From Escherichia coli (lineage in GTDB: Bacteria; Pseudomonadota; Gammaproteobacteria; Enterobacterales; Enterobacteriaceae): 64,000 nt of DNA. The stretch lies in assembly GCF_048403405.1 (NCBI RefSeq), contig NZ_CP183129.1; one strand, given 5' to 3'. This document shows, piece after piece, positions 11,127-58,695 of the stretch (its first letter is position 1; every line of letters starts with the position of its first letter). A program made the translations under genes and the position numbers. Under the pieces are notes generated by a model that worked only from the letters and a program-made list of their open reading frames with translations, ran no database searches and was not told where the DNA came from.

Positions 11127-11132
11127 ACCTCT

Positions 11133-11167
11133 AAACATTGAGCGACCAGCATGGCCGCTCAATGTTT
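11133..11167. terminator. Hairpin (12-bp perfect stem AAACATTGAGCG/CGCTCAATGTTT) between the membrane-protein gene and S; likely bidirectional terminator
   Basis: Inverted repeat read directly from the sequence. Confidence 0.6.
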
Positions 11168-11197
11168 AATTGCGCATCAGCCTCTGCCTGGATAAAA

Positions 11198-20375: not shown

Positions 20376-20402
20376 AGTTGGCGGAATGCAATCCCGCCAA
20401 CT
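20376..20402. terminator. Hairpin AGTTGGCGG-AATGCAATC-CCGCCAACT between convergent Q and cargo operon; likely bidirectional terminator
   Basis: 9-bp perfect stem read from the sequence in the 42-bp gap between the stop codons. Confidence 0.6.
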
Positions 20403-20405
20403 TAA

Positions 20406-21113
20406 CTATATATACTTCCTTTTTACTCTACTTAATTCTATCACTGATGAGGAGTGACAAAATGACAAATTAATAGTATCGATATAATCCAAAATTTGAC
20501 TCTCAACCTCAATAAAAATATTTTTGGGCCCATTACTAATCGATATACCGATTTCATCCAAAACAGCCATCATTTTTCTCTGATGAGTTTTATATTTATA
20601 GTCTTTATTTTCCTCTGTAATATGTGCATTGGCTTCCTCAATAACACATTTGATTCTAGATATTATTTCTAGATAATCTCTCGAAACAGATATATCACCG
20701 CCTTGCGCTTCAGGGAACATAACCCTATACCATCTAAAAAAATTAACTTTCTCTGGATAGATGCTACTTCTTTTAGTTAACTCAGCACTTGCAAATTCTC
20801 TAAACATCGTCAGATGACTAGTGTAATTACTATTATTATTATTTTTAACTCCAGCGTTATATGTCATCAAAGCAATCATAACACCAAAAACGGTAACAAA
20901 AGTTGTTATAAGCCATCCAAACGCCTGAAAATACATTACTATACCAGATGTTTTTTCCGCAAAAAATTTTAAGCACTGGCTATCGAAGCATATATCACGC
21001 TCATATAGCTTTTCATTCTGAATAGTTTCAAAAAGAGAAATTAGCGAAAAAATCAAAAAAAGAGCTGACGACACACCGACAATATATTTGAGAAGTCTAA
21101 TATTTGCATTCAT
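20406..21113 (-). CDS. Cargo protein with two N-terminal transmembrane helices, translationally coupled to the upstream reverse transcriptase; candidate effector
   Basis: ATG at 21113 overlaps RT stop (ATGA); 235 aa; hydrophobic segments IVGVSSALFLIFSLISLF and GIVMYFQAFGWLITTFVTVFGVMIALMTY; AT-rich by eye. Confidence 0.65.
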   Translation of the reverse strand: MNANIRLLKYIVGVSSALFLIFSLISLFETIQNEKLYERDICFDSQCLKFFAEKTSGIVMYFQAFGWLITTFVTVFGVMIALMTYNAGVKNNNNSNYTSHLTMFREFASAELTKRSSIYPEKVNFFRWYRVMFPEAQGGDISVSRDYLEIISRIKCVIEEANAHITEENKDYKYKTHQRKMMAVLDEIGISISNGPKNIFIEVESQILDYIDTINLSFCHSSSVIELSRVKRKYI

Positions 21114-22336
21114 AATGGTTTTAAAGATGCCAATCTAGATTTAAAACACTCCAGTTTTTCTTTAAATGATTCAGAGCGAGTAAGAATAATCATCTTATAT
21201 CTCGTCAAATCATATTTTCTTTTATACCAATGTTTATTTTGATTACCTTTCGAATACGACAACTCTAAACTTTTTATAGCTGCATCAATCACAGCAACAT
21301 CTCTTTTAGATGGCATCGGTTTTATTGCCTGCAACTGTTTCTTGAATGATTCATATTTTTCATGCCCAACACGGCCAAGCTTATTCACTCTCCCCATACA
21401 TCTATTGAATTCTTTTCTGTATGCAACACTTGTTTTTGTGTTATTTTTTGCCGCCAGTAATTTCAAATTATGTATAGATGCCCTGATTCTTTTGACTTCA
21501 TCGGATGGTAGTCGAGGTGAGTCATAGTCAACTCTTAAACCATGTACTTTTATAGGTTCAGATGAACAGTGAAATATTTTTGTTTTGTGCTTATTTATCG
21601 GCAAGTCATGCTCAGAAAGCATCCTCTCTATATGGCTTTGCATTTGAGAAAAATCATAATTACTTATTTTAGATGACACGGTAATATCATCTACCAAACG
21701 CGTATAAACAAGTCCTTTCCTCTGCGCACGTCTTACCACATCCCCTTCAACAGCGAATAAACACAAAGTTGCTATATAGCTTGATGTTAAGGCCCCCTGT
21801 ACGACAAAATCATCCTTAGTACATATATCCACCAAGTATTCAAGAGCCTCATCCTTAATATGCAATATCTCCTCAAACACGCTCCTAACCAGATCTCTAT
21901 GGATATTATCGAAAAAATTACTTATATCCACCTTGAGAACTGTTTTTGCTCCACAATGAGCCTTTGCACATGAAACATAGTCACGTTTGACATTAGAATT
22001 TAAAACATCATTTTTACTGGGAACTGAACCAAACAAAAATGAAGGAAAAACAACCAATTCCTTAAAAATACGTTTATTAATTCTACTCTGTAATAATCTC
22101 ATTTTAGGATGTAGGGAGTAGACAATCCGTTTGCTTCCGTCAATTTTGGGAATTTCTTTTAGAGTATATTTCTCATCTAATGATAATTCTGCAATAGCTT
22201 TAAGCTCTTCAACAGAAATCGATAAAGCCTTTGACAACTTTTCAAGTGTTGTGATAGGAGCATTGGATTTGCTGTATGGTTTAAATTTATCCATAAACAT
22301 ACCATTCAAATTCAAAGTTACGTACGGTCTTCCCAT
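21110..22336 (-). CDS. Reverse transcriptase (retron-like or Abi-type), defence-associated candidate
   Basis: RT motifs in the translation: IPKIDGSKRIVY (fingers), VLKVDISNFFDNI (motif A), QGALTSSYIA (motif B-like), YTRLVDDITVSS (YxDD; DNA ~21671-21706), and KVHGLRVDYD resembling the retron VTG region. Start uncertain: ATG candidates at 22336, 22300, 22294; the supplied ORF extends to a TTG at 22384. Confidence 0.8.
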   Translation of the reverse strand: MGRPYVTLNLNGMFMDKFKPYSKSNAPITTLEKLSKALSISVEELKAIAELSLDEKYTLKEIPKIDGSKRIVYSLHPKMRLLQSRINKRIFKELVVFPSFLFGSVPSKNDVLNSNVKRDYVSCAKAHCGAKTVLKVDISNFFDNIHRDLVRSVFEEILHIKDEALEYLVDICTKDDFVVQGALTSSYIATLCLFAVEGDVVRRAQRKGLVYTRLVDDITVSSKISNYDFSQMQSHIERMLSEHDLPINKHKTKIFHCSSEPIKVHGLRVDYDSPRLPSDEVKRIRASIHNLKLLAAKNNTKTSVAYRKEFNRCMGRVNKLGRVGHEKYESFKKQLQAIKPMPSKRDVAVIDAAIKSLELSYSKGNQNKHWYKRKYDLTRYKMIILTRSESFKEKLECFKSRLASLKPL

Positions 22337-22625
22337 ACTCAAGGGTGGAACAGCAGAGATGCTTACATCAACAATTGTCAGCAACAGCCTCTGCTATCTT
22401 TCGACCGTACGTAATGTCGTCGGCTACGGCACCATCGTAGTTGACGACGGTGGGGCCTCGCTGATAGGTCCATAGTGGACGCTTTTTTGTAAAAGCAAAA
22501 ACTGACAATTTAATGTTGTTGACTGCCGCATACCAAGCGAATCGCTGGTGCGCTAAGAATAATGCAACAAAAAAATAAGAATTTCAACCGGGTAACTGCA
22601 AGCCAGCGACATCGTTTAGCGCGCA

Positions 22626-22644
22626 GTGCTTTCCCCGCCTCGCC
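22626..22644 (-). other. cos: cos cohesive-end site (19 nt, GGCGAGGCGGGGAAAGCAC on the minus strand)
   Basis: Exact match to the P2 cohesive-end sequence as remembered; embedded in a locally GC-rich noncoding stretch between the RT gene and the 612-aa gene. Confidence 0.75.
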
Positions 22645-22805
22645 CGCCCGCTTCGTGGGGCGGTTTTAATGCAGGTGCAATACCGCTTTTGAGCCACGCC
22701 CGTCCTGGCGGACGCACGGCCGGAACATGCAACTCCGGCACATGCAAAACCATGCACATATTGCACGCAGAAAGATAAATGCCAAAATACCTAAATCAAC
22801 TTCCA

Positions 22806-24644
22806 TTAATCAGCCAGATAAGGTTCAACTTTATCTTCCCATACACTAAATAAAGGCAAACAAGTTAAATAAAAGATAAAGACACAGGCAAAAACTGAAG
22901 TTGGTTGATAACAATGATTTACAGTATACCTGCCATGAGCCATCGTGTGTCTAATTGCAGCACCACCTTTCATATTGAACAATAAATCCATAGTCAATAC
23001 ATGATCACTATCAAAAACACCTTCCATTTCACTCCTATAATTTGCAAGCATTTGAGATAGGCTAGTAGCCTCCTCAAAAAGCGACACATCTATTTTCGTT
23101 GTTTCTTTTCTTCTTAATTCTAAAATCCATCTAATTGAATTCTCCAATTGCGGCAATAACAAATAACAGGCAGACACATAATCTCCCTGCCAAAGCTTAT
23201 AAAACCCCAAAGAAAATATTTCTGCATACCCAGGTGGAACAAATGCACTTTGTTGTGAGATTGGGTCAAATGTATTTTCATTTAATGAATACCTAGCCAA
23301 CACACTTTGCCTAACGACTTCAAACTCACCACAAACATAGACCTGATGCTCAATGTTACTAGTTCTTAAATAATTTGCACAAGCATCATTTAAACTTATA
23401 TCCCCCGCAGGATCCAAAGGTGAACGACTTGCTACAACGCGCCCTCTATCATCATAAACAACCGTTTCACTCATATTAAGAAAAAAATGTTTTTTAGCAT
23501 CGGAACGAGCTCTTTCCATAATTTCACTGGCACTTACAATCTTAAATCTAGCAATTAAAGTTTTAATTACCCTTGAGAAATCCAATTGATTATAAACATG
23601 CTCTTTCTGAGCGATAACATCACTAAGATCCATTGGTATTGCAAAGAAGTGCATTTCATCATTGATTTGATCTCGAATAGAATTCAATTCCTCTCTAATC
23701 TTTTTAATTTCTTCATTCATTCCACCAATTGCTCTAAATTCGCCAAGAGCAACTCTTAACCAATGAGCCTTCAATATTGAAGATGAAGACTGTTCAAATT
23801 GAGCCAATGTTATTTCTGACGCTTTAATTCTGCACCGTCTTCCTTGCTCTTCCATATCGTTTTTAACATATAATTCAGACGCAAAATAAAACAATTTTTT
23901 CACTGCATCAAAATAAGACGCTCCACAATGCTCATCAGCTATCTTTTCTGCATTCTCAGCCAATTGCAAGGGACACAATAAATTATTCTTATAAAGAATT
24001 TCAGAAACTCTTAATACACCGGTGAATATACCAGAGTCTATTAATACATGATATAACCTTAATGTCGAATCAACTATCCCCCCTTGTAGTTGTTTTTTCC
24101 TGCCAATAAGCATGCGCGATATTGCGATACCTCTATCCAAGCAGTCAACAACATCAAAAATATGGATATCACCTGACTCTTGTTTTTCTATTAAAGTATC
24201 GCAAGCATCATTAACCATTAGAGAATATGACTCTATTGCTTTATTGGCAGAGTCTATATCCTTACGGTTATTTATCCATAAAACATCACACACCCTAGAT
24301 ATAATATAAGGATTATCGGAGTTTTCTTTAATACAAGTTAATATTGTTGAAAAACTCTCCTTATAATCTGAAGGCCTATAGCCCCTCTCAGGATAGAGAA
24401 TGATTTTTGGCTCAAAACCGATAATATCACCAGACCTAGAAAATTTAAAATTAAACAACGCACGTAATAAATAGCAAAGCCGCCAAGAACTTACATCGTT
24501 TTTTAGCTTGTAAGATGACAACAACTGAACAAAATAAGACTCCATATCAAAATGAGAATAACTTCTTGGCGATGATAATATACTGGCGTATTCACTTTTT
24601 TTAAAATCATCAACTGAAATAGAAAAAACATCAAACTCGCTCAT
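22806..24644 (-). CDS. Cargo protein of unknown function (612 aa) with C-terminal HEPN-like R-x4-H motif (AIRHTMAHGRY); candidate abortive-infection RNase
   Basis: ATG at 24644 with GGTGAGGA upstream; no P-loop seen; AT-rich by eye; occupies the P2 tin/old position between A and cos. The HEPN call rests on one short motif. Confidence 0.6.
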   Translation of the reverse strand: MSEFDVFSISVDDFKKSEYASILSSPRSYSHFDMESYFVQLLSSYKLKNDVSSWRLCYLLRALFNFKFSRSGDIIGFEPKIILYPERGYRPSDYKESFSTILTCIKENSDNPYIISRVCDVLWINNRKDIDSANKAIESYSLMVNDACDTLIEKQESGDIHIFDVVDCLDRGIAISRMLIGRKKQLQGGIVDSTLRLYHVLIDSGIFTGVLRVSEILYKNNLLCPLQLAENAEKIADEHCGASYFDAVKKLFYFASELYVKNDMEEQGRRCRIKASEITLAQFEQSSSSILKAHWLRVALGEFRAIGGMNEEIKKIREELNSIRDQINDEMHFFAIPMDLSDVIAQKEHVYNQLDFSRVIKTLIARFKIVSASEIMERARSDAKKHFFLNMSETVVYDDRGRVVASRSPLDPAGDISLNDACANYLRTSNIEHQVYVCGEFEVVRQSVLARYSLNENTFDPISQQSAFVPPGYAEIFSLGFYKLWQGDYVSACYLLLPQLENSIRWILELRRKETTKIDVSLFEEATSLSQMLANYRSEMEGVFDSDHVLTMDLLFNMKGGAAIRHTMAHGRYTVNHCYQPTSVFACVFIFYLTCLPLFSVWEDKVEPYLAD

Positions 24645-24797: not shown

Positions 24798-27083
24798 TTA
24801 TGTCCACTCCATTACTGTTGAGAATCCCGGCCACTCATCAATGACCGGATACGTGAATTTTTTCCCGCCATAATTTATGGTCGCTCCCCGAGCCAGCGCC
24901 TCAAGCTCCCATCGCTGTGGCCTGATACCGTTCTGAGCAAGGTCAACGCGGATACGGGTAATTTGCATTCGTTCCGACCGGGTCAGTCTGGCCGATGGCG
25001 CTATTTCATGCGGTTTTAACGGGCTTCCGTTTCTTTGCTGACGGTTTGGTCTTCTCAGACCGTGTTTTAATGCACCTCTGAGCGCCCTCACGACCTCCTG
25101 GTCATTCCATTCGATAACACCGTCATCTACCAGATTAAGCACTGCTACGGCGTGTTCAGAAGGCGTGGGAGCCGGTGACGAAGTATCACCACCGGTGAGC
25201 TTTCCACAGTTATTGACAGGACTCCGAGGCGCGGCGATGCCGCTTTTTAAAGTCAACGGCTCAACGACCGGAACTTTCGGCACAATGCGCCAGTCCGTCG
25301 TTCTGGTGATATGAATATGACGCGTGCCGAGATGCGGCGCGTAAATGCCGACCACTCTCTCGACTTCTTCCTCGTACTCGTTAACGTCATCCGACGGGCT
25401 ACGGGCGACCCTGACAGTCTGACAATCGCGCGGGACATTTGCCCCGCCCTGCGCGCTGATATACAACGCAAAATCACCACTGTCTGCGGCGGCGCGTGCA
25501 GCCTCGACGCGTTCGTCAAACTCATCAGCAATGCTGACGCCGCGAGGCAATTTGCGTAGTTCACGGTAAGCCCCCATTGTCGGCAGGCCAACCGTTTTAA
25601 ATTGCGGGATACGCCACGTTGACGCCCATGCGGTAACAGCCGCTGCAGTGTCTTTCAGCGGCCTGCCGGTATCGTTATCGAGCTGACCATCCAGTGCATA
25701 GCCGTCGATATTTTTTGAGATGTATTTCGCGATATATCCCGCAGCACCGCCCCGGTTAAGGTGTTTCGCCTGAAAACGGTTTCGCGCGGCTCCTCTTTCG
25801 TCGCCATCCTCTTTGAGCGCATAGCGACGCATGATTTCGATAATCTGGTTACGCTGGCGTGGATTACAAAAAAGCATCATATGCCAGTGCGGCGTTCCGT
25901 CGTGGTGTGGCTCGACGACTCGCAAACCGTAGACCTGTAAATCATTATCCTTGAATGCCGTGCGCATCAGGCTCCAGATACGGCAGAGATAACGCTGCGC
26001 ATCCTTCGGATTAAATGCCTCATCATTCCAGCCGTGATTAAGCTGCACGGTTTTACTTTCTCCTTTTCCGACCTGACGTGTCGGGTGATACTTTGACGGC
26101 GCGGTCAGCGTGATAAACATCCCCACATCACCCTCTGCGGCGGCGTAACGCTCAATACCGGCGATGGTGTTCATCAGCTCCATCCGGCGAATTTCAGGAT
26201 TAGAAATACTGCCCATCACCTTACTGATAAGGTCGATGCGCTCGCCGGTTTCCCTGTTTTCGAGGTCACACGATTTAAGAAATTCCAGATTTGCCTGGCG
26301 GCGTGCACGCACATCACGAATGGCGTGTTTACTGGCATAAGGAGAACGATCTTTATTGACCTCCCCGACAGCAATCAGTAACGCCTCATGCCAGCGCATA
26401 CGCTGGCCTTTAAGCTGATGAGTCCACCACTCATCGTTAAACAGGCGGGCAATGGCAGAATATGCCTGCCTCGTGGTCATCTGTCCTTTACGGTATTTTT
26501 TCCAGTAGAGCGGGGAAATATTGAAAGCACGTGCAGCGCCAGCAACATGACTATACAGGTGAGCCTGCGCCTCATCCGTAAACAGCGATTCTTTTTCGCC
26601 ATGCGCATCCACCCAGGCATCGCTGAGTTCCTCATACATCATGAAAAGCTGCGATGAGATACGGGCGGCAAACTTTTTCAGCTCCTTGTCATTCATTCCA
26701 GGCAGGCGCGCATAGTGGTCACGCTCTGCCAGAAACAGCAACGACGCGTCGGTGTTCATTTCATGGCGCTGATTCACGCGCTCAATGCGCGGCCATAAAC
26801 GACGCTGAAAAGTGGATGTGAGGAAATAAAACCCGTGTACCGGGCTTTTATTGCGCCGGATGTAGTCATAGCGTGAAGTAAACAGCGAGCGCAAAAAGTA
26901 AGGCAGGCGGTTAATCGTGGATAAAACCCCTTGCACCTGACGCATCTCGTCACGTGTAAGGGGTCTTTCGCGCCCGACGGCCTCGCGTGGCGCGTTCCAT
27001 GCATAAGCACCGGTAAACGTCTTACCGGTGCCTGCGGCAAATGCTGACGGAGGGACAAAACGCCCGGAGGCTTTAACGGCCAT
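24798..27083 (-). CDS. A: Replication initiation protein gpA (rolling-circle nickase)
   Basis: ATG at 27083 (MAVKASGRFVPPSAFAAGTGK...), 761 aa; the supplied ORF extends to an upstream TTG. Confidence 0.9.
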   Translation of the reverse strand: MAVKASGRFVPPSAFAAGTGKTFTGAYAWNAPREAVGRERPLTRDEMRQVQGVLSTINRLPYFLRSLFTSRYDYIRRNKSPVHGFYFLTSTFQRRLWPRIERVNQRHEMNTDASLLFLAERDHYARLPGMNDKELKKFAARISSQLFMMYEELSDAWVDAHGEKESLFTDEAQAHLYSHVAGAARAFNISPLYWKKYRKGQMTTRQAYSAIARLFNDEWWTHQLKGQRMRWHEALLIAVGEVNKDRSPYASKHAIRDVRARRQANLEFLKSCDLENRETGERIDLISKVMGSISNPEIRRMELMNTIAGIERYAAAEGDVGMFITLTAPSKYHPTRQVGKGESKTVQLNHGWNDEAFNPKDAQRYLCRIWSLMRTAFKDNDLQVYGLRVVEPHHDGTPHWHMMLFCNPRQRNQIIEIMRRYALKEDGDERGAARNRFQAKHLNRGGAAGYIAKYISKNIDGYALDGQLDNDTGRPLKDTAAAVTAWASTWRIPQFKTVGLPTMGAYRELRKLPRGVSIADEFDERVEAARAAADSGDFALYISAQGGANVPRDCQTVRVARSPSDDVNEYEEEVERVVGIYAPHLGTRHIHITRTTDWRIVPKVPVVEPLTLKSGIAAPRSPVNNCGKLTGGDTSSPAPTPSEHAVAVLNLVDDGVIEWNDQEVVRALRGALKHGLRRPNRQQRNGSPLKPHEIAPSARLTRSERMQITRIRVDLAQNGIRPQRWELEALARGATINYGGKKFTYPVIDEWPGFSTVMEWT

Positions 27084-27348
27084 ATGAGCCAAAAGCCTCT
27101 GAACAACGCTTGCTGAGTTGCTCAACCTGCGCGTTTAAATCAGCAAAAGACTTTGCGCTTCCGGTCAGAATATCGTGATGCATCAGGCCGGAAACGAGCT
27201 GGCTTAATTTCGGGTAATAACCAACCACCGCCAGCCATTCCTGACCGGCGTTTTTACCGCTTTCCGCTCTCTTTTTCTCGTGGAGAATAAACTGAAAGCT
27301 GTCACTGGTAACGACATAACGTTCGCCAATTTCAATACGAATGCTCAT
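27073..27348 (-). CDS. Small early protein at the P2 orf83 position
   Basis: 91 aa, position only. Confidence 0.5.
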   Translation of the reverse strand: MSIRIEIGERYVVTSDSFQFILHEKKRAESGKNAGQEWLAVVGYYPKLSQLVSGLMHHDILTGSAKSFADLNAQVEQLSKRCSEAFGSYGR

Positions 27349-31527: not shown

Positions 31528-31539
31528 TTTCCCCGTAAA

Positions 31540-31569
31540 GCGGCAACTTTTTTGAGTTGCCGCTTTTTT
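31540..31569 (+). terminator. Rho-independent terminator after pflA
   Basis: GCGGCAAC-loop-GTTGCCGC followed by TTTTTT. Confidence 0.8.
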
Positions 31570-33167: not shown

Positions 33168-33376
33168 AGACAAATCCTTCGCCAAAATTAAAGGGGCATC
33201 TGTAAAACGAGGGATTATGCGCGGCAAATAAGAAGTGCGGAAATAGCGAAATGCAAAATTATAACCTGCTGCACATTTTATTTTTAAACGAATAAAATTT
33301 GGAATAAAGCAAGTCAGATAGAAGAAACAAAAAAGCAGAGTGTGAAACAGTAAGTTCACACTCTGCTTGAATTCAT

Positions 33377-58633: not shown

Positions 58634-58668
58634 CTCTTCTGTCTCATTGTGTACATCCTAAAGGCAAA

Positions 58669-58695
58669 ATGCCAGCCCGATCGGCTGGCATTTTT
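58669..58695. terminator. Bidirectional terminator between cspD and macB
   Basis: TGCCAGCC-CGATC-GGCTGGCA hairpin flanked by an A-run and TTTTT. Confidence 0.75.

Follow-up and report, generated by a model that had tools for sequence, protein, structure and literature searches.

The window analysed here, a 64,000-nucleotide stretch of an Escherichia coli genome, carries on its minus strand a reverse transcriptase (RT) gene and an effector gene.

20406-21113, minus strand: retron Ec48 two-transmembrane effector (PADLOC 2TM_IV), whose start overlaps the RT stop codon (ATGA)
21110-22294, minus strand: retron Ec48 reverse transcriptase, 394 aa (PADLOC RT_IV); the RefSeq CDS shares its start

The RT gene matched the PADLOC RT_IV profile over its full length (E = 8.4e-177), with the profile beginning at 22294, and the effector gene matched the 2TM_IV profile (E = 4e-85). 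In a RefSeq comparison, the retron DNA was 100% identical to annotated E. coli genomes, whose identical loci carry the product name 'retron Ec48 family effector membrane protein'. Pfam PF28197 was found in homologues at the same position as the two-transmembrane effector. The RT belongs to clade 3, as in the type IV group (Retron-Eco6/Ec48 family); the two-transmembrane effector gene of a type IV retron is present, overlapping the RT gene; and so is the msd hairpin, onto which the published RT-DNA maps from plus-strand position 22407 onward and whose folding shows selection as cDNA. We identify the locus as retron Ec48 (Retron-Eco6, a type IV retron), with RT and two-transmembrane effector, within a P2-like prophage; RT, effector and RT-DNA sequence are those of the published element (Mao 1997, Millman 2020, Mestre 2020, Palka 2022). 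Ec48 is an already known anti-phage system, and the inverted repeat described below is an ordinary part of this known defence element. Ec48 is also the textbook case of a retron 'guarding' RecBCD, and its RT has been used in compact prime editors. An Rfam 15 scan of 21800-23000 returned only chance-level matches (E of at least 0.44).

Promoter, msr and msd

Upstream of the RT gene, the promoter, msr and msd were placed as follows.

22559-22587, minus strand: putative sigma-70 promoter, TTGAAA-17-CATTAT, with a predicted transcription start near 22553
22533-22547, minus strand: msr stem-loop SL1 (CCAGCG AUU CGCUUGG), read from the sequence
22468-22496, minus strand: msr stem-loops SL2 (22496-22481) and SL3 (22480-22468), from pairing and compensatory changes
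22407-22454, minus strand: msd template of msDNA-Ec48, from the published RT-DNA, 48 nt long (45 nt, to 22451, by sequencing; Palka 2022)

We compared these elements across a set of 40 homologous loci, and ranked cognate against non-cognate duplexes among 28. Promoter-like elements lie directly 5' of SL1 in most homologous loci, with a perfect TTGACA in L002, L015 and L028. A hairpin of the GCG-NNN-CGC type occupies the SL1 position in 37 of the 40 loci, its stems differing between them. SL2 and SL3 are 90.8% and 86.5% paired, respectively, with compensatory changes, and both fold better in the sense orientation.

The msd template contains a nested hairpin together with the outer 8 nt of the 5' arm of helix P1 (below). 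This hairpin (22416-22448) is present as the first-pass annotation described it, and was recovered by a repeat search as neighbouring arms of 13 nt (22416-22428 and 22436-22448; 85% complementary, 7-nt loop). The Eco6 RT-DNA string in the retron census supplement begins GTACGTAATGTCGTCGG, which is plus strand 22407, and continues through the hairpin. Across homologues, A.C combinations outnumber G.U in its stem (90 versus 36), and the segment folds better as antisense in 31 of the 40 (p = 4e-6). The msd stem-loop, from which the DNA hairpin of msDNA-Ec48 derives, is this nested hairpin, and it is under selection as cDNA. A search for a minus-strand terminator-like site (GC-rich hairpin plus U run) at P1 or at the msd hairpin found none.

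Helix P1 and its hairpin domain

Between the msd hairpin and the RT gene lies a hairpin domain consisting of P1 at the base, P4, P2/P2b and an apical loop. It spans about 97 nt here and 92-110 nt among homologues.

22403-22414, minus strand: P1 5' arm, UUACGUACGGUC, one arm of a 12-bp inverted repeat, from pairing and covariation
22386-22398, minus strand: P2 5' strand (22398-22389) and P2b 5' strand (22388-22386), including a near-invariant GGC
22349-22363, minus strand: P2b 3' strand (22363-22361) and P2 3' strand (22358-22349), with a 2-nt bulge between them
22332-22345, minus strand: P4 mini-hairpin, CCC-UUGAGUAU-GGG, with an invariant AUG at 22336-22334
22318-22329, minus strand: P1 3' arm, GACCGUACGUAA, the other arm of the 12-bp inverted repeat, from pairing and covariation

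The repeat search confirmed the perfect inverted repeat that had drawn attention to this region (TTACGTACGGTC, 22318-22329; GACCGTACGTAA, 22403-22414; 12 nt, 100% complementary, arms 73 nt apart). Its 5' arm in the transcript starts 1 nt past the msd hairpin and its 3' arm stops 24 nt before the RT start codon. The first-pass annotation had named folding of the minus strand and a search for compensatory changes in homologous loci as checks, and both were applied. Minus-strand RNA 22455-22310 folds at -56.9 kcal/mol, compared with -35.7 +/- 3.5 kcal/mol in dinucleotide shuffles (z = -6.1). Perfect 12-mer inverted repeats with a gap of <=100 nt occur at five distinct places within the window; by the same criterion, shuffled windows give a mean of 0.4 matches, and 31 of 100 shuffles have at least one. 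The single-sequence evidence is mixed because a perfect 12-mer inverted repeat alone is not rare in 64 kb, and it is the comparison across 40 homologous loci that places P1 beyond chance.

In that comparison, 90.1% of P1 cells are paired, 11 of the 12 pairs show compensatory changes, and the observed score was reached by none of 500 shuffles. Slid controls were 35-42% paired, against 78% for the whole structure. The P1 arms form a duplex of -16.3 kcal/mol with their cognate partners and -6.6 kcal/mol with non-cognate ones, and micro-covariation is visible even between close relatives, for example L061 and L029. On the transcribed strand, G.U pairs outnumber A.C (39 versus 11). The 12-bp inverted repeat is P1, an RNA helix acting on the transcribed strand. 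The proposal that it forms a cis-acting RNA structure therefore stands, as does the suggestion that it belongs to a non-coding RNA (ncRNA) partner of the RT, here the ncRNA of a retron-type RT.

The rest of the domain is likewise conserved as RNA. The hairpin (22414-22318, about -41 kcal/mol) is stabler in sense than in antisense in 36 of 40 loci (p = 3.5e-7), so that folding sense separates the msd hairpin, better as cDNA, from the bracketed domain, better as RNA. P2/P2b pairs at -11.7 kcal/mol in cognate and -5.2 kcal/mol in non-cognate combinations, with the cognate partner best in 20 of 28. P4 is 97% paired over the 40 loci, with C-G pairs replaced by U-A and with C, U, U and G invariant, and the most invariant nucleotides of the ncRNA are concentrated in this domain. 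A covariance model (R1) gave a single match in the window, 22314-22416 on the minus strand (87 bits), and matched each type IV locus once, immediately 5' of the RT gene in every case, except for L023, L031 and the distant L034, where the search returned no match; most of the validation loci, viral contigs included, are close or near-identical to training sequences.

As had been noted from the sequence, ATG 22336 lies within the bracket formed by the repeat, and 22300 and 22294 lie just outside it. The accompanying idea that 22336 could be the RT start was not borne out. This ATG is invariant, yet its frame relative to the RT is random over the 40 loci (14/12/13) and stops often follow it; no Shine-Dalgarno sequence was found before it and no conserved open reading frame (ORF) in the hairpin domain. 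The conserved RT start is 22294, the start of both the RefSeq CDS and the PADLOC RT_IV profile. We rejected 22336 as an RT start or as a conserved upstream ORF, and it is instead an RNA motif, invariant as such but not conserved as a start codon.

Sequestration of the RT start by the repeat, the other role suggested at first pass, fared no better. The start lies 24 nt 3' of P1, and both it and the RT Shine-Dalgarno region fall outside all conserved helices. The local hairpin that the start codon region can form lacks significance (z = -0.5). Neither the P1 arms, the 3' strands, P4 nor the 5' strands showed lineage-specific pairing with the initiation region, cognate duplexes being about equal to non-cognate ones (median cognate rank 13-15 of 28). 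With no covarying partner for the start, a sequestering hairpin was rejected: P1 is not an operator covering the RT start, and neither ribosome-binding site (RBS) nor start codon is held in a conserved helix as in type VI retrons.

A predicted pseudoknot and the published ncRNA boundaries

The apical loop of the hairpin domain pairs with the msr region through a further covarying helix, P3.

22502-22522, minus strand: P3 5' strand (a2-like), UCAAC 22522-22518 (P3a) and AAUUGUCAG 22510-22502 (P3b), from covariation
22368-22381, minus strand: P3 3' strand (a1-like), CUGACAAUUGUUGA, in the apical loop of the P1-P2-P2b hairpin

The P3 strands were also recovered as inverted repeats I7 and I16 in the repeat search. 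Across the 40 loci, P3a is 95.3% paired with compensatory changes in 5 of 5 pairs, and P3b is about 76% paired with compensatory changes in 7 of 7. Cognate P3 duplexes have -16.0 kcal/mol against -6.5 kcal/mol for non-cognate ones, and the cognate partner ranks first in 22 of 28. The P3 5' strand often, though not universally, has a G as its 3'-terminal nucleotide (G22502 here); this G is missing in L010 and L022.

Ec48 shares msr stem-loops, one msd and a long-range helix with canonical retron ncRNAs such as that of Ec86/Eco1 (a2-G-msr-msd-G-a1). P3 resembles an a1/a2 stem in being a covarying long-range pairing between the beginning of the msr and sequence 3' of the msd, but it does not abut the template in the canonical way. 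In Ec48, unlike Ec86/Eco1, a2 has a stem-loop (SL1) ahead of it, 25 nt separate the reported cDNA start (22407) from a1 (22381), and the 12-bp repeat encloses neither msr nor msd. Because the published RT-DNA has its 5' end (22407) within P1 and at this distance from the P3 3' strand, P3 is not beside the initiation site. The a1-like strand occupies the loop of a hairpin, and the 5' strand of that hairpin separates msd from a1, so the predicted arrangement is a pseudoknot, unlike that of Ec86/Eco1. Of the a1/a2-type pairings that could close the msr-msd fold, P3 is the only one that covaries, and with it the whole RNA is a predicted pseudoknot.

These limits differ from those in the retron census, where the Retron-Eco6 ncRNA spans 22573-22388. 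That annotation omits the 3' half of the domain, and with it the 3' strands of three conserved helices; the structure described here continues for another 70 nt in the 3' direction, as far as 22318, and has P3 as its closing helix instead. The census a2/a1 ends pair at -5.8 kcal/mol, mostly through G.U, overlap the conserved promoter -10 element and lack covariation (-6.9 cognate versus -6.7 kcal/mol non-cognate), and were rejected as the true closing stem. Searches of the transcript for a stem plus G complementary to 22405 onward yielded none (the best candidates were 4-6 bp stems), and we found neither a stem-plus-G adjoining 22407 nor lineage-specific pairing of the sequence 3' of the reported cDNA start with the msr.

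The 12-bp repeat itself was rejected as a canonical a1/a2 stem. Its arms enclose 22402-22330, whereas msr and msd sit 5' of the 5' arm; G22402 is not conserved, the RT-DNA maps elsewhere and the domain is selected as RNA. For the same region, the idea that the enclosed 73 nt might be a short msr/msd-like template failed, as the published RT-DNA matches the nested hairpin further upstream. We also rejected, as a feature of the whole family, a branching G located in the P1 3' arm across from the first base to be copied, because most loci have A there (UA 25 versus CG 10).

Full-text sequence searches of the literature for an msr/msd map of Ec48 gave no relevant match. The usable published Ec48 sequence data are the entries in the census supplement, as reviews and other supplements give figures only. 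No earlier description of the non-canonical ncRNA fold was found in the literature examined. By this analysis, the RNA partner of the Ec48 RT extends up to 24 nt before the RT start codon and folds as a covarying predicted pseudoknot. In the census, the one other type IV retron whose DNA production was assayed with a predicted ncRNA gave no PAGE-detectable DNA, a result on which omitted 3' strands may bear.

Proposed RNA architecture and its alternatives

We consider it probable that the Ec48 transcript carries a P1-based hairpin domain, with the nested hairpin as msd, P3 as a pseudoknot and no start-codon operator. A single minus-strand transcript from about 22553 would comprise SL1-SL3, the msd stem-loop, the domain of about 97 nt, and the RT and effector genes. 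P1 would be the basal helix, with P4, then P2/P2b, then the apical loop above it, and the central 14 nt of that loop would pair, as P3, with the segment just after SL1. Copying into the published msDNA begins with the outer 8 nt of the P1 5' arm. The domain would form part of the RNA scaffold recognised by the RT, hold the 3' edge of the template and present the a1 strand. As P1 would have to open for the first templated copying, cDNA synthesis followed by RNase H would unpair both its 3' arm and the RT leader.

Type VI retrons, represented by the Retron-Vpa2 hybrid RNA (bioRxiv 10.1101/2025.10.22.683967), offer an analogy. Retron-Vpa2 has a clade 3 RT, as does Ec48, and in both an extra structured RNA appears to lie between msd and a1-like repeat, a likeness of layout; phage anti-RecBCD or recombination proteins elicit a response from both. 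The type VI toxin is encoded within the RNA, its RBS and start codon hidden in stem-loops; in Ec48, by contrast, the domain has no conserved ORF and the RT start is not sequestered. Type VI msDNAs of 63 nt and 86 nt have been described, and in type VI a 5' cDNA segment of about 23 nt is absent at steady state. On a more speculative reading, the type IV ncRNA would depart from the canonical a2-msr-msd-a1 fold: its a1 strand would be displayed in the loop of the conserved hairpin that also holds the template start, priming would occur near G22502 and the near-invariant GGC (22389-22387) with the 5' strand of the hairpin copied first, the primary cDNA would measure about 65-72 nt, and the 48-nt msDNA-Ec48 would, by analogy with the two type VI lengths, be a 5'-trimmed form in RecBCD-proficient cells. 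If so, Ec48 could read RecBCD inhibition from the state of the 5' cDNA segment or of the hairpin's liberated 3' strand. That pseudoknot, junction priming, 5'-trimmed msDNA and RecBCD readout should all hold jointly is, however, rather unlikely.

Two alternatives would give the domain a different function. The P1-P2 hairpin could repress the leader until reverse transcription, or msDNA acting in trans, opened it and raised RT and effector translation. Such a riboregulator would suit the ATGA overlap of the two genes and the invariant AUG in P4, and in sister type VI retrons msDNA and stem-loops of the shared transcript regulate effector translation; moreover, the template includes the P1 5' arm, so that the 3' arm must be released by cDNA synthesis and RNase H. 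We hold it a minority possibility in view of the RT Shine-Dalgarno sequence and start outside all conserved helices, the initiation region without lineage-specific complementarity (median rank 13-15 of 28), the start-codon hairpin at z = -0.5, the random frame of an AUG that lacks a preceding Shine-Dalgarno, and loop sequence invariants that better match protein recognition. Somewhat more doubtful is a primer supplied by the domain downstream of the msd and not by the msr, either a nucleotide of the P1 3' arm or P4 or the 3'-OH of a cleaved RNA. Most homologues have A, not G, opposite the first templated nucleotide (UA 25 versus CG 10), the invariant G22329 is base-paired and internal to the helix in many loci, and reviews class Ec48 with retrons that have a normal priming G. 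Against these observations, the RT-DNA 5' end lies 4 bp from the inner end of P1, opposite G22325/C22326, the domain holds the most invariant nucleotides of the ncRNA, and a repeat-flanked hairpin has been considered a possible alternative msr in Se72 (Simon 2019); the census RT-DNA string also continues as far as the expressed RNA's 5' end, something more readily explained without an upstream branch point.

The remaining alternatives treat the repeat more simply. Stacked P1 and P2 give about 22 bp of double-stranded RNA, which might serve as an RNase III-type site separating the ncRNA from the RT mRNA. This is improbable even though 22414-22318 forms an extended hairpin of high stability (about -41 kcal/mol) and reviews report cleavage of RT mRNA from msr-msd: processing would not require covariation between apical loop and msr, and the P3 pairing, the P4 invariants and the constant length of the domain are left unexplained. 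A miniature retron, in which the 12-bp repeat would act as a2/a1 and branching would occur at G22402, with the msr in P2 and a tiny msd in P4, is very unlikely. An unpaired G directly follows the 5' arm and two hairpins lie within the bracket, but that G is not conserved, the 3' arm has no G immediately before it, folding of the domain favours the RNA over the cDNA sense, and the sequenced RT-DNA lies upstream of the bracket, not within it. Scarcely credible is a chance repeat, or a palindrome acting at the DNA level as protein operator or recombination site. The frequency of perfect 12-mer inverted repeats in 64 kb would allow it, but the sequence varies freely while pairing is kept, G.U exceeds A.C on the transcribed strand (39 to 11), and the arms stand 73 nt apart around a structured and conserved interior.

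Besides type VI, the closest comparison to the architecture proposed for Ec48 is Retron Se72/Retron-Sen1 (type V), which forms a sister clade of Ec48. In Se72, a repeat-flanked hairpin downstream of the msd was proposed as an alternative msr, with no obvious priming G (Simon 2019). Unlike Ec48, Se72 makes double-stranded DNA without a detected 2'-5' link. In a quick scan, the predicted Sen1 ncRNA showed a conventional 9-bp terminal repeat only.

The Ec48 locus and the helix formed by its inverted repeat

The element is retron Ec48, and the system is therefore already known: in the Mestre classification, type IV corresponds to Retron-Eco6 (Ec48). DNA 100% identical to the locus is present in complete E. 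coli genomes (megablast), whose annotations call the two gene products 'reverse transcriptase family protein' and 'retron Ec48 family effector membrane protein'. Both genes match PADLOC profiles:

Minus-strand ORF ending at 21110, RefSeq start 22294, 394 aa: retron reverse transcriptase (RT); PADLOC profile for type IV retron RTs, matched over its whole length, E = 8e-177
20406-21113, minus strand: two-transmembrane effector; PADLOC type IV two-transmembrane effector, 4e-85

In older usage the Ec48 RT has 408 aa (D216/D217 numbering) and starts at the ATG at 22336. The RT stop codon overlaps the effector start codon (ATGA, 21110-21113, minus strand), which implies translational coupling of the RT and the membrane effector.

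A repeat search of the window recovered both elements described in the first-pass annotation, a perfect inverted repeat (22318-22329 and 22403-22414; 12 nt, 100% complementary, spacing 73 nt) and an adjoining hairpin (22416-22448; 13-nt arms, 85%, 7-nt loop). RNA folding of the minus strand, a check it had proposed, gave −56.9 kcal/mol for 22455-22310, far more stable than shuffles (z = −6.1). Seen in a single sequence, the repeat is weak evidence because such a repeat is unsurprising in 64 kb; perfect 12-mer inverted repeats with arms ≤100 nt apart occur at five places in the window and at least once in 31 of 100 dinucleotide shuffles. The comparative data carry the argument. Perfect inverted repeats (12 nt or longer, loops of 5-13 nt) occur at four further sites, 11132-11168, 31537-31566, 33333-33368 and 58666-58694, and are probably terminators.

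Homologous loci were gathered from a genome scan (34 loci) and protein look-ups (9 loci), with RT identities of 41-79%, and covariation was computed on MAFFT alignments of 40 loci. An exact-repeat scan found three inverted repeats at fixed positions, their sequences differing per locus. In P1, the helix of the 12-bp repeat, 90.1% of cells were paired across the 40 loci, and the compensatory base changes that the annotation had proposed seeking were found in 11 of the 12 pairs, each changed on both sides; one column pair is GC in 16 loci, CG in 12, AU in 5 and UA in 3. Compensatory pairs also separate close relatives, such as L061 (...GCTCGATCA/TGATCGAGC...) and L029 (...GCTTGATCA/TGATCAAGC...). 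P1 arms pair at −16.3 kcal/mol with their cognates versus −6.6 with arms from other loci, and on the transcribed strand G.U outnumbers A.C by 39 to 11. For the whole structure, 78% of cells were paired, compared with 35-42% when partners were slid, and the observed score was reached in 0 of 500 shuffles. On this comparative evidence, the 12-bp inverted repeat is a conserved RNA helix.

P1 encloses further elements, together forming a domain of about 97 nt:

22398-22389 / 22358-22349, minus strand: P2, helix enclosed by P1
Beyond a 2-nt bulge of P2, minus strand: P2b, 3-bp extension of P2, enclosed by P1
About 22 nt, minus strand: apical loop, enclosed by P1
22345-22332, minus strand: P4, small hairpin CCC-UUGAGUAU-GGG with a covarying stem and invariant loop nucleotides

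The domain varies little in length (92-110 nt), and in 36 of 40 loci its sense strand folds more stably than the antisense (p = 3.5e-7). R1, a covariance model of the domain, matched the 64-kb window exactly once (22314-22416, minus strand, 87 bits) and each type IV locus once, every time directly 5' of the RT, except in the type IV-like L023 and L031; the extra viral-contig loci it matched were mostly close to training sequences. Among RT homologues, R1 found no match in L023 (Colwellia), L031 (Pseudoalteromonas) or L034 (Terriglobia); the leaders of the first two are divergent or rearranged, and L034 (28% identity) is probably another retron type.

The P4 mini-hairpin CCCUUGAGUAUGGG contains an AUG (22336-22334, minus strand) conserved without change in 37 of 40 type IV loci. 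The first-pass annotation had counted 22336 among the candidate RT starts; across 40 loci the AUG falls at random in the three frames relative to the RT (14/12/13), and in many loci it heads ORFs of 2-16 codons that then stop, which argues against that role. The AUG is likely an RNA recognition motif, or it may be a decoy or regulatory start codon.

The msd, the pseudoknot helix and priming

The sequenced Retron-Eco6 RT-DNA in the retron census supplement starts GTACGTAATGTCGTCGGCTACGGCACCATCGTAGTTGACGACGGTGGG, which is the plus strand of the window from 22407, and the 48-nt product therefore spans 22407-22454; the end of the 45-nt Ec48 product sequenced by Palka et al. maps to 22451. Census RT-DNA 5' ends are reliable, since the supplement's strings for Eco1, Eco2 and Eco4 equal the known msDNAs exactly. 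The product comprises a 9-nt 5' tail, a 13-bp hairpin and a short 3' tail. The nested hairpin at 22416-22448 is the msd, the template of the small DNA (msDNA), and strand asymmetry supports this independently. In RNA sense, msd hairpins contain 90 A.C oppositions, which are G.T pairs in cDNA, versus 36 G.U; the window's own hairpin (minus strand) has two such A.C mismatches. Antisense is the more stable form of the msd segment in 31 of 40 loci (mean −16.6 versus −12.6 kcal/mol, p = 4e-6) and, family-wide, this segment alone favours antisense, all other helices being more stable as sense. Judged from sequence, this asymmetry marks the reverse-transcribed part without experiment.

A long-range helix, P3, joins the centre of the apical loop (22381-22368) to the segment 3' of the first msr stem-loop (22522-22502). 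Its P3a part is 95.3% paired with compensatory changes in 5 of 5 pairs, and P3b has them in 7 of 7; cognate strands pair at −16.0 kcal/mol versus −6.5 for non-cognate strands, and the cognate partner was best in 22 of 28. P1/P2 separates the two P3 strands, with the 5' strand outside it and the 3' strand within, and this makes the fold a pseudoknot. The meeting point of P3, P2b and the msr stem-loop SL2 holds a cluster of near-invariant nucleotides (GC at the SL2 base, C-G at the boundary of SL2 and the stem-loop SL3, GGC at 22389-22387). Four invariant or near-invariant GC dinucleotides of the SL2 base and P2b (22495-22496, 22480-22482, 22387-22389 and 22361-22362, minus strand) are mutually complementary and could swap partners, for example the SL2 5' GC with the P2b GGC, which suggests a compact junction or alternative pairing at this point.

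Priming geometry is the one real puzzle of the Ec48 RNA. A canonical retron has its first templated base immediately beside the a1/a2 stem and the branching G. The reported cDNA start at 22407 is 8 nt into P1, with 25 nt between it and the P3 3' strand; we found no G following a stem that could pair with 22405 onward, and no covarying msr partner of 22406-22386. Most homologues have an A in the P1 3' arm across from the first templated base, and the P3 5' strand ends in G in most loci, not all. Priming may occur at the P3 junction, with the 48-nt species a 5'-trimmed product, by analogy with the sister type VI retrons, whose resting msDNA is 63 nt long and whose 86-nt form, longer by a 23-nt 5' segment, appears only under RecBCD inhibition; Ec48 is likewise triggered by RecBCD inhibitors. 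Alternatively, the 3' domain may supply the primer, in parallel with a published proposal for the repeat-flanked hairpin of Se72.

Other readings of the repeat and a proposed function

The first-pass annotation had read the repeat as a cis-acting RNA structure sequestering the RT start or as part of an ncRNA partner of the RT. A structured RNA was borne out, as P1 covaries within a retron, but an operator over the RT start was not: the start at 22294 is 24 nt beyond P1, no lineage-specific complementarity was found between any domain segment and the RT initiation region, and a local hairpin at the start codon was not significant. The suggestion that the enclosed 73 nt hold an alternative template fails on the RT-DNA, which maps to 22407 onward and not to the interior. 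For the same reason the repeat is not a canonical a1/a2 stem; it encloses neither msr nor msd, and the G after its 5' arm is not conserved. Nor is it the published a1/a2. The census ncRNA for Eco6 maps to 22573-22388, an interval that stops midway through the domain; its two terminal 9-nt segments pair in a mostly G.U helix (best duplex of the ends −5.8 kcal/mol), its 5' end overlaps a predicted sigma-70 promoter (TTGAAA-17-CATTAT, 22587-22559, minus strand), and the equivalent segments showed no covariation (cognate −6.9 versus non-cognate −6.7). With ends that pair weakly, overlap a promoter and do not covary, that annotation looks computational. Promoter counterparts lie directly 5' of the stem-loop SL1 in most loci, with perfect TTGACA boxes in three.

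Most likely, and in keeping with these facts, the domain would be an integral 3' part of the retron ncRNA, a scaffold bound by the RT that sets the template 3' edge and presents an a1-like strand to an a2-like strand. P1 would have to melt in cDNA synthesis, because the outer 8 nt of its 5' arm are copied into msDNA, and RNase H would then leave the P1 3' arm and the RT leader single-stranded. Unlike canonical retron ncRNA, the Ec48 RNA has its a1 in a hairpin loop, folds as a pseudoknot and carries an extra conserved domain reaching nearly to the RT start, and its boundaries differ from those in current use; the type VI hybrid RNA resembles the domain by analogy only. We did not find the pseudoknot architecture described in literature text, and it may be drawn in figures, such as the supplementary consensus structures of Mestre 2020. 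Ec48 is thus an already known defence system whose RNA architecture is under-described.

Prophage and satellite setting

The retron resides in a P2-like prophage. On one side it is flanked by the genes for the replication endonuclease and a DUF7380 protein, on the other by portal and terminase genes. The 612-aa ORF directly upstream of the retron (22806-24644, minus strand), a DUF7380 protein in RefSeq, matches the PADLOC candidate defence family PDC-S39 (2e-68), and the two together fill the prophage variable slot from the replication endonuclease (24798-27125) to the portal/terminase genes. The interval from the DUF7380 stop codon to the retron promoter holds GC-rich, REP-like palindromes (22620-22770), and one of them, CCGCCCGCTTCGTGGGGCGG at 22644-22663, is a terminator-like site on the plus strand. 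When the 2.4-kb retron region (20400-22810) served as query, about 2,100 other E. coli genomes matched part of it at 90-99% identity. In Providencia (L037), Morganella (L041) and Cronobacter (L043), the elements that carry the type IV retron are P4-like satellites and not P2 prophages, and the retron's neighbours there are a primase (Zn-ribbon/Toprim/DUF927), an Ogr/Delta regulator and an integrase.
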